A stretch of DNA of 64,000 nucleotides from Yuukianura sp. NJ FZ-2021 (Eukaryota). The translations under genes were made by a program, and so were the position numbers. This document shows, piece after piece, positions 12,556 through 15,088 of the stretch. The notes under the pieces were generated by a model. The model was not told the origin of the DNA and searched no databases. It saw only the letters and a program-made list of their open reading frames with translations. How positions within the stretch are numbered: position 1 is the stretch's first letter; every line of letters begins with the position of its first letter. The stretch lies in assembly GCA_046563655.1 (NCBI GenBank), contig CM102288.1:4588001-4652000 (forward strand). The letters are read 5' to 3'.

Positions 12556-15088
12556 ATGAATGAGCTGGACAGTTTGAGGCAGGAAGCCGAAACATTAAAA
12601 AATGCCATCAGGGTGAGTGAAAATAAAACTTGTGTTGAGAAAGTAATACTGGAATCATTTTTACATGTATACTGTTTTGTTGGTTGTAGGATGCTAGAAA
12701 GGCGGCCTGTGACACGACATTGGTGCAGGCGACGGGTAACCTTGAGCCGATCGGTCGAATTCAGATGCGGACACGCCGAACGCTGCGTGGTCACTTGGCC
12801 AAGATCTACGCGATGCACTGGGGGAGTGACTCTAGGAACCTCGTGTCAGCATCACAGGATGGGAAGCTGATTGTGTGGGACTCATACACGACGAACAAAG
12901 TGCATGCCATCCCACTTCGCTCCAGTTGGGTCATGACTTGTGCCTATGCTCCTTCAGGCAGTTATGTCGCTTGTGGTGGACTCGACAATATCTGCTCCAT
13001 TTACAGGTACTGGACAAAAACACTAATTTAAGTAAATGGAATTAATTGCAGAGGACGAGGAATAATGAGTTGATTTTGTGTCGTTTCAGTTTGAAAACCA
13101 GGGAAGGTAACGTGCGTGTAAGTCGAGAGTTGACAGGTCACACGGGCTACTTGAGTTGCTGTCGGTTCCTGGATGACAATCAGATCGTGTCCAGCTCAGG
13201 TGATATGACCTGTGCCCTGTGGGACATAGAAACGGGACAGCAGTGTACATCCTTCACGGGACATACCGGAGATGTCATGTCGCTCTCCCTCTCTCCAGAC
13301 ATGAGGACGTTTGTCTCAGGAGCCTGCGACGCTTCAGCTAAGGTCAAGTCACTAACCTCTTTTTACACACTAACACTTTTAGTAGAGGTTTAGGTTGGAA
13401 AGTTATCTTGAGGTTGGACAAGTTCTTAGATGAGTTTAGGAAGATATTTATTTTATGAGGTGTACTGGAATACTGGCAAGGCAGCGGGATACTTGCCAGT
13501 ATTCCAACTGATTCCTTGAGGCAGGGAGTATTTTAATTGAATCTGAAGTTAATTTGACTTGAATTGTAACAGTTGTGGGACGTGAGAGATGGACTCTGTC
13601 ACTACACCTTTGCAGGACATGAGTCAGACATCAATGCCATAGGCGTAAGGACCCTTGACCTTAAAAACAACGATTTGTTCTTGACCTCTGTTGACCCCCA
13701 CCCTCGTCCCCGCCGGTTCTTACTTACTATTGCCTTTCTCTCGCCAAGTTTTGCCGTTGTTGCACCCTTAATTCTGGATATTAGTAGAAGCGATTTTCTC
13801 TCTCTCACATATTTACGCAGTTTACTTTAGTTTTTGCGTTGATTAATTAAAAATTGGCAACTTGCATGATGTTGGTGCCAATGCTGTAGAAGGGAAAAGC
13901 TGATGAAAGGCTTTAGAACGGGATCAAAGGTTTGCTTTGATCATGCTTTTGATCATACAACTCTAAGGGAAAATAAGATTTATGTGTAGTAGTTGTTAGT
14001 TTGAGTTTAATTAATACTTAATACATTTGTTATTAATCACAATTAATTTTTGAATCGCACGACTCTTTTGTTTTGACACTTTGTTTTTGCTTTTTTCTTC
14101 CATATTTGTTTGGATCCTGTAGCTGTGGGACGTGAGAGACGGAATGTGTAAGTCTACATTCAGTGGACACGAGTCTGACTTGAATGCTGTTGCTGTAAGT
14201 AATTTGAAATTTAACAATTAACTAGTGTATTCGGTTGAGGTAAACCTAAAGTGCATACATTGTAACCAGCGACGCCATTTTTGTAACCACCCTATTAATA
14301 CACTGGGTGGTTACAATCATGTCGATACAAAACGTGGTTTGTAACCACTGTGTGTGTACAAAAATGAGTTCGGTGGTTACAATGGATGCAATTTGCCTTT
14401 ACTCCAACCGTGTATTCATTTGAGGATACTCAAGTACTATAAGAGCATGCAGCTTGTTTCTCTTTTTCTAACTTGAGCTTGGCCTGTTTTATTTTTTGAA
14501 CTAAAAGTAGAATTGAGCCACGCCCTGTTTCCTCCCTCTCTCTCTCATAATCATTACAAAACAAAGTGACGAATTGAATTTAATTGGTTGGTGTGATATG
14601 TTTGTAGTTTTTTCCGAATGGACTGGCGTTTGCAACGGGGTCAGATGATGCGACGTGTCGATTGTTTGACATTCGGGCGGATCAGGAGCTGGCCATGTAC
14701 TCACGTAAATGACAAATTCATTTAAAAAGTCAGGTTTTAACTTTGAATCAATTTAATCGACTCACCGTCTTAACCGCCTTATTATTTTTCTGTTTAGACG
14801 ATAACATCATATGTGGAATCACCTCGGTCGCCTTCTCCAAATCCGGCCGACTCCTCCTCGCCGGCTATGACGACTTCAACTGTAACGTTTGGGATTCCAT
14901 GAAAACTGAGAGAGCTGGTATACCACACAATTTCAAAAGAAAATCACGAAAAGAGAAACTGAATTTGATTTGGTTTTTTAGGCGTGTTAGCTGGTCATGA
15001 TAATCGAGTGAGCTGTTTGGGTGTAACTGAAGATGGAATGGCCGTTGCCACTGGGTCTTGGGACAGTTTTCTGAAAATCTGGAACTAG
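12556..15088 (+). CDS. GNB1: Heterotrimeric G-protein beta subunit (GNB1/Gbeta13F type), 340 aa
   Basis: Exons 12556-12612, 12690-13006, 13090-13342, [13573-13644 or 14123-14194], 14608-14704, 14798-14917, 14982-15088 sum to 1023 nt (340 aa plus stop) when exactly one 72-nt exon is used. Motifs [29 protein letters not shown]40 repeats, [11 protein letters not shown]. Confidence 0.97.
13573..13644 (+). other. G-beta alternative exon 4a ([24 protein letters not shown])
   Basis: taacag acceptor, 72 nt open in phase 0, GTAAGG donor; paralogous to 14123-14194. Confidence 0.85.
14123..14194 (+). other. G-beta alternative exon 4b ([24 protein letters not shown])
   Basis: Long pyrimidine tract and ctgtag acceptor, 72 nt open in phase 0, GTAAGT donor; paralogous to 13573-13644. 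Confidence 0.88.

Follow-up and report, generated by a model that had tools for sequence, protein, structure and literature searches.

A tandem-duplicated exon pair in a G-protein beta-subunit gene of Yuukianura sp. that may be spliced in a mutually exclusive manner

The beta subunit of heterotrimeric G proteins (G-beta) is among the most conserved of animal signalling proteins, and its diversity is normally ascribed to separate paralogous genes, such as Gbeta13F, Gbeta76C and Gbeta5 in Drosophila and GNB1-5 in mammals. We analysed a 64,000-nucleotide (nt) stretch of the genome of Yuukianura sp. NJ FZ-2021 (assembly GCA_046563655.1, contig CM102288.1, positions 4,588,001 to 4,652,000 of the forward strand; hereafter the window, with positions counted from its first letter), in which a G-beta gene carries two adjacent versions of its fourth coding exon, termed here 4A and 4B. 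Mutually exclusive exons derived from tandem duplication are known elsewhere, for example from the myosin heavy chain and Dscam clusters of arthropods (PMC2257972, PMC1397879 and PMC9741552). For the G-alpha subunit, PMC5896119 describes mutually exclusive exons 7 and 8 of vertebrate GNAO and single-exon duplications in the lancelet preGNAI and preGNAQ genes.

Like the myosin heavy chain and Dscam clusters, the G-beta pair consists of neighbouring exons that are homologous, agree in length and phase, have their own splice sites and encode the same structural element, so that either can stand in for the other. Unlike those clusters, it has two copies, shows no apparent enforcing mechanism of a described kind, and is known here from gene sequence. 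It resembles the G-alpha pairs in belonging to the same signalling complex and in being a local exon duplication whose isoforms would differ at protein-interface regions, whereas it sits in the beta and not the alpha subunit. By contrast with the separate G-beta paralogues, the diversity would come from one gene. No report of a mutually exclusive exon pair in a G-beta gene was found in the literature, the supplements of genome-wide exon catalogues lying outside that search. In the one arthropod isoform pair compared, G-beta X1 and X2 of the mite Oppia nitens, the difference is one inserted residue near position 68, with no exon-4 swap. Swappable tandem exons are a well-known device, and what appears to be new here is an instance in a G-beta gene.

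The two copies, 4A at 13573-13644 (+) and 4B at 14123-14194 (+), are adjacent on the same strand, 72 nt long and in phase 0, and each is bounded by its own AG and GT. Both encode residues 210-233. They are identical at 50/72 bases and 17/24 residues; seven of the 17 shared residues (210, 215, 221, 222, 225, 227 and 231) use different codons, and the seven residue differences lie at positions 217, 219, 220, 223, 229, 232 and 233. The repeated unit measures 79 nt, comprising the exon with the preceding AG and the following GTAAG, and the similarity ends at the splice sites. The three introns around the pair showed no mutual cross-match when each was compared with the window by blastn. A tblastn search of the exon peptide against the six-frame translation of the window recovered the other copy at an expectation value (E) of 5.8e-11, with 74% identity over 23 aligned residues. 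The next match was the preceding WD repeat in exon 3 (35% identity, E = 0.004), and no third copy of exon 4 was found in the window. A sequence-only reading of the window had proposed two such 72-nt phase-0 exons with canonical splice sites, 17 shared residues of which seven use different synonymous codons, and flanking introns without visible similarity, and our coordinates, translations, recount and intron comparison reproduce each of these points.

The copies are thus clear homologues of equal strand, length and phase, as expected of a mutually exclusive cluster that arose by tandem duplication. Their anatomy and splice signals are intact, and long-term purifying selection has acted on both; their alternative use, one at a time, is what we infer from these features. 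We consider it probable, with some reserve, that they form a tandem-duplicated, mutually exclusive pair through which one gene yields two G-beta isoforms.

The gene that holds the pair (12556-15088, +) is a compact gene for a canonical 340-residue heterotrimeric G-protein beta subunit. It was rebuilt from open frames and splice sites as seven coding exons per mRNA, with one exon 4 chosen, and every intron has GT-AG borders. Coding exon 1 (12556-12612, +), located by the gene model and by tblastn of the assembled protein on the window, runs from the ATG to residue 19 and ends at the donor AGG/gtgagt. The remaining exons, placed by the gene model, are exon 2 (12690-13006, +; 317 nt, tag/GAT to CAG/gtactg), exon 3 (13090-13342, +; 253 nt, ending in DASAK), exon 5 (14608-14704, +; 97 nt, starting with FFPNG), exon 6 (14798-14917, +; 120 nt) and exon 7 (14982-15088, +; 107 nt including the stop codon, ending in SFLKIWN). 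The introns flanking the exon pair measure 230, 478 and 413 nt, and the other four 64-93 nt.

The exon 3 translation reaches 96% identity to named G-beta-1 proteins, and a full-length comparison of the assembled protein with the database representative P0014, whose cluster includes named insect and mite G-beta-1 proteins, gives 94-95% identity. A relative 98% identical to the window protein (L004, from a metagenome contig) aligns with solved mammalian G-beta-1 from 1-340 on 1-340 (E = 2.5e-209). Because this alignment is residue for residue, exon 4 corresponds to residues 210-233 in standard numbering. The product has the approximately 340 residues, the N-terminal helix and the seven WD repeats of the family, co-linear with G-beta-1. 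The conserved hot-spot residues W211, D212, H225, D228 and N230, which are invariant in a 30-sequence alignment reaching from sponges to vertebrates, are present in both copies.

Both exons nevertheless depart from the family at Q220, which is replaced by Y in 4A and by S in 4B, and 4B alone has L in place of I229. In the 196 exon-4 motif instances (195 proteins) that we counted among 230 fetched proteins, Q220 occurs in 194/196 and I229 in 196/196, and both are invariant in the 30-sequence metazoan alignment; the Q220/I229 state of the G-beta-1-like class is therefore not carried by the window exons. These changes are single-residue departures and give no grounds to exclude the gene from the G-beta family. 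They are not mentioned in the sequence-only reading. The altered Q220 of both copies could reflect either relaxed constraint there or a partner surface that has changed.

The positions of the differences were considered on the G-beta-1 fold, on which we take exon 4 to cover, in blade 4, the last part of strand C together with outer strand D, then the D228/N230 loop of the top face and, in blade 5, inner strand A. On this assignment, residues 217, 219, 220 and 223 would be placed in the rim strand of blade 4 or beside it, and residues 229, 232 and 233 would belong to the strand with which blade 5 starts. The sequence-only reading had suggested that the changes at 217-223 lie near the side that faces G-gamma and that the isoforms may differ in partner preference. 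Selectivity for gamma-1 is said to have been placed in beta-1 residues 215-255 by Katz and Simon (PNAS, 1995), and our search found no literature source on a G-gamma-selectivity segment of G-beta. The earlier reading had pointed to D228 and N230 as residues of the G-alpha/effector contact surface kept in both copies; both are present, and PMC12799613 lists them among the G-beta residues contacting TRPM3.

The explanation that competes best with mutually exclusive use is that just one copy is used in the window species and that the other is a silent, exon-like relic whose use was lost fairly recently, which we regard as possible but rather unlikely. The relic would most likely be 4B, as relatives express the 4A type, and less likely 4A, with its weaker splice signals. 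Against it, both copies are free of stop codons, have kept the exact length and retain intact splice sites. Divergence between the copies was estimated by the Nei-Gojobori method, all selection tests on the pair being based on 72 nt. The proportion of differing synonymous sites (pS) was 0.744 (11.2 of 15.0 sites) and that of nonsynonymous sites (pN) 0.190 (10.8 of 57.0), a contrast with p = 1.5e-4 in a Fisher test on the rounded counts. The differences fall 6, 3 and 13 times on codon positions 1, 2 and 3, respectively. Because pS is saturated while pN is 0.19, neither copy can have been under neutral drift for long.

We also applied a conservative test in which neutral drift of 4B is limited to half of the third-position distance (d = 0.48). 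Under this condition, finding at most nine changes among first and second codon positions, 48 in all, had a probability of 0.009, and in 20,000 neutral simulations at the same distance 0.005% were stop-free with at least 20/24 residues kept. The real 4B still shares 20/24 residues with the commonest animal exon-4 sequences. The ratio of nonsynonymous to synonymous substitution rates (dN/dS) between 4A of the window and the 4A exons of L004 and a second metagenome relative, L016, was 0.02-0.07, with dS saturated, which likewise speaks against a relic. Each copy has thus kept usable splice sites and an open frame under selection. Both the simulations and the low pN relative to pS reject a long period of neutral drift for 4B, and a recent loss of use is compatible with the 72-nt data; for long-term purifying selection on both copies the sequences give strong hints rather than proof. 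The earlier claims of an old duplication and of purifying selection on both copies are borne out by the saturated synonymous sites between them and by the pN/pS contrast with the drift simulations, respectively.

The age of the pair was investigated through its relatives. A scan of metagenome contigs with an exon-4/exon-5 junction pattern, which required G or A at residue 233 before FFPNG, yielded 16 loci, and a scan of genome contigs for any G-beta exon 4 gave no match. L004 and L016 are cDNA-like contigs with uninterrupted 340-residue open reading frames in which exon 3, a 4A-type exon and exon 5 are joined, with a single exon-4 copy. Their exon-4 segments match 4A at 22/24 residues, and that of Folsomia candida OXA58241 matches it at 21/24. 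The 4A signature of L217, H219, I232 and G233 is common to these three sequences, and the combination of L217 and H219 was found in 3/195 motif-bearing proteins, exactly OXA58241, L004 and L016. Copy 4B has the majority metazoan states M217 (123/196), K219 (107/196) and V232 (133/196), and its codons differ from those of 4A by two bases at each of the four signature positions. For these two reasons, 4B is not a recent copy of a 4A-type exon.

Between the window gene and L004 or L016, pS was 0.73-0.84 over about 218 synonymous sites, which is saturated, and pN outside exon 4 was 0.022-0.026. The saturation indicates that the three lineages are deeply separated. Since the 4A signature is common to Folsomia, L004 and L016, the duplication would predate these lineages. 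The simplest history suggested by the sequences is that the duplication came first and that the 4A signature arose afterwards, before the window, Folsomia, L004 and L016 lineages split. If so, 4B would have been kept intact over a span that randomises neutral sequence, and from such an early duplication one would expect the gene of Folsomia to have a 4B-like exon as well. Two further loci from the scan, L005 and L012, are cDNA-like sequences of a different organism, with an extra serine run after residue 67 and an exon 4 ending in NAVA joined to FFPNG; as 4B-type relatives they were ruled out by the serine-rich insertion and their other flanks, and they are unrelated to the window lineage.

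The similarity between the copies is unevenly distributed. The first 21 bases (13573-13593 versus 14123-14143) are identical at 19/21 positions and use the same GTG and AGA codons, compared with 31/51 for the other 51 bases, and the codons of L004 and L016 at V213 and R214 differ from those common to 4A and 4B. The near-identical 5' segment may stem from partial gene conversion or serve as a common exonic splicing signal.

The splice signals of the two copies are unequal. In 4B, a run of 12 pyrimidines precedes the acceptor (ending in ctgtag) and the donor is of the consensus form (GCT/gtaagt, 6/6 to GTAAGT); these signals equal or surpass those of the constitutive exons. The acceptor region of 4A (ending in aacag) is purine-rich with a weak polypyrimidine tract (9/19 pyrimidines, longest run 3), and its donor is GGC/gtaagg.

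Described mechanisms that enforce exclusive splicing are steric hindrance across a short intron, incompatibility of U2 and U12 sites, frame shift with nonsense-mediated decay (NMD), and competing intron pairing. At 478 nt, the intron that separates the copies greatly exceeds the length at which steric hindrance could act, and all splice sites are of the common GT-AG type, which leaves no U2/U12 incompatibility. The gene model gives 340 residues with either 4A or 4B alone, 364 with both and 316 with neither, as the sequence-only reading had predicted for a 340-residue product whose frame survives both alternatives. Its corollary that NMD cannot enforce exclusivity also holds, because the products with both exons and with neither stay in frame. 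Regarding intron pairing, the duplex energies of whole introns fell inside the range of shuffled sequences or were weaker, the observed values being reached by 13/40, 40/40 and 7/40 shuffles, and the best ungapped complementarity between introns was reached by 17/30, 3/30 and 3/30 shuffles. A 16-nt pairing of 14072-14087 with 14558-14573 was considered as a competing RNA structure and discarded, since shuffles reach comparable complementarity and it is no more than expected by chance.

Two structured elements lie near the pair, and for neither could a link to the splicing choice be made. One, at 13466-13506 and 67 nt upstream of 4A, is a perfect 15-bp hairpin with an 11-nt loop, a folding energy of -28.5 kcal/mol (z = -6.1) and no second copy in the window; a role in splicing is possible. 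The other, a 200-nt element at 14225-14425, 31 nt downstream of 4B, resembles a miniature inverted-repeat transposon. Its 59-nt inverted arms are 78% complementary, its folding energy is -82 kcal/mol (z = -10), and direct repeats GTGTATTC flank it; a partial copy (86% over 42 nt) is present at 31595-31634.

Under mutually exclusive use, the fourth coding exon would have been duplicated in tandem long ago, with both copies staying functional as coding exons. Each mature mRNA would then carry either 4A or 4B, giving isoforms that differ at the seven positions. Most likely, trans-acting factors would make the choice by regulating how the strong sites of 4B compete with the weak acceptor of 4A, and products with both exons or neither would be lost as misfolded protein. 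We also considered a more far-reaching version, which as a whole is speculative and unlikely. In it, the pair would be older than the split from Folsomia, L004 and L016 and would have been kept throughout, with 4A used broadly and 4B restricted to a tissue or stage, for example sensory. The isoforms would present two surfaces at the blade-4 rim and the entry of blade 5, possibly with different G-gamma or effector preference, and one gene would thereby take on the work of the separate G-beta paralogues of insects and vertebrates. The case would be the first of mutually exclusive splicing in a G-beta propeller.

Several observations weigh against the alternative use of 4A and 4B, and some of them also favour the loss of one copy. 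Transcript-level support in relatives is limited to the 4A type, every such match (OXA58241, L004 and L016) being of this kind, and the norm can be a product with one exon 4, as the 4A-type cDNAs demonstrate. A 4B-type protein was found in 0/196 exon-4 motif instances from the 230 fetched proteins, the best identity to 4B being 20/24. This lack is weak evidence, because the database matches are representatives of 90% clusters, within one of which the isoforms would fall; for the clusters of 162 and 537 members, up to 40 members were listed. The 16 metagenome loci contain no springtail-like 4B type, although the pattern would miss 4B-like forms lacking G or A at residue 233. Both Q220S and I229L in 4B affect near- or fully invariant positions and can be read as relaxed constraint, but 4A likewise replaces Q220. 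If instead 4A were the relic, its poor polypyrimidine tract would fit, as would the changes Q220Y and S223A relative to the 4A exons of L004 and L016, which keep Q220. None of the four textbook exclusivity mechanisms is evident at the pair, and the tests of selection draw on 72 nt.

It is very unlikely that both exons are spliced in together to give a 364-residue protein, or that the pair is skippable as a cassette to give a 316-residue one, either of which would be a non-canonical G-beta. The preserved frame of both products and the absence of a visible exclusivity mechanism would allow for this. The duplicated unit, however, has just 24 residues and is not a whole WD repeat, and its copies are 74% identical to each other as against 35% to the neighbouring repeat, so a reading of the second copy as an eighth blade was rejected. 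As a whole blade has about 42 residues, the gain or loss of 24 should destroy the seven-bladed fold. Outside exon 4, the protein is extremely constrained (pN 0.02 against the relatives); by the alignment made with L004, it is co-linear with solved G-beta-1 over residues 1-340, and the cDNAs of the relatives carry one exon-4 copy. An artefact or a foreign piece is scarcely credible, whether as two alleles that the assembler placed in tandem or as part of an exon recently taken over from a G-beta paralogue. The copies differ at 22/72 bases with saturated synonymous sites, 478 nt of unique intron separate them, and their similarity ends exactly at AG and GTAAG. Compared with a tandem duplication, it is also much less likely that an exon with exact borders would arrive in the right intron with the right orientation and phase.

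Open frames elsewhere in the window include an N-myristoyltransferase match with both domains at 7206-7859 (-), a C3HC4 RING finger match at 23619-24638 (+), an EFL1-like GTPase with elongation-factor domains III, IV and C at 29702-31279 (+), and a 721-residue frame at 32268-34430 (-) with a peritrophin-A chitin-binding domain at its beginning. The latter domain is in keeping with an arthropod, and the exon-4A signature suggests a springtail or a near relative of one.

Should 4B be unused, the locus would amount to a slowly decaying duplicate of little interest. If both exons are used in the manner we favour, the gene would offer a natural isoform pair with seven differences, an experiment on the surface residues that tune partner choice. 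The exon-duplication route known for G-alpha (PMC5896119) would extend to the beta subunit.

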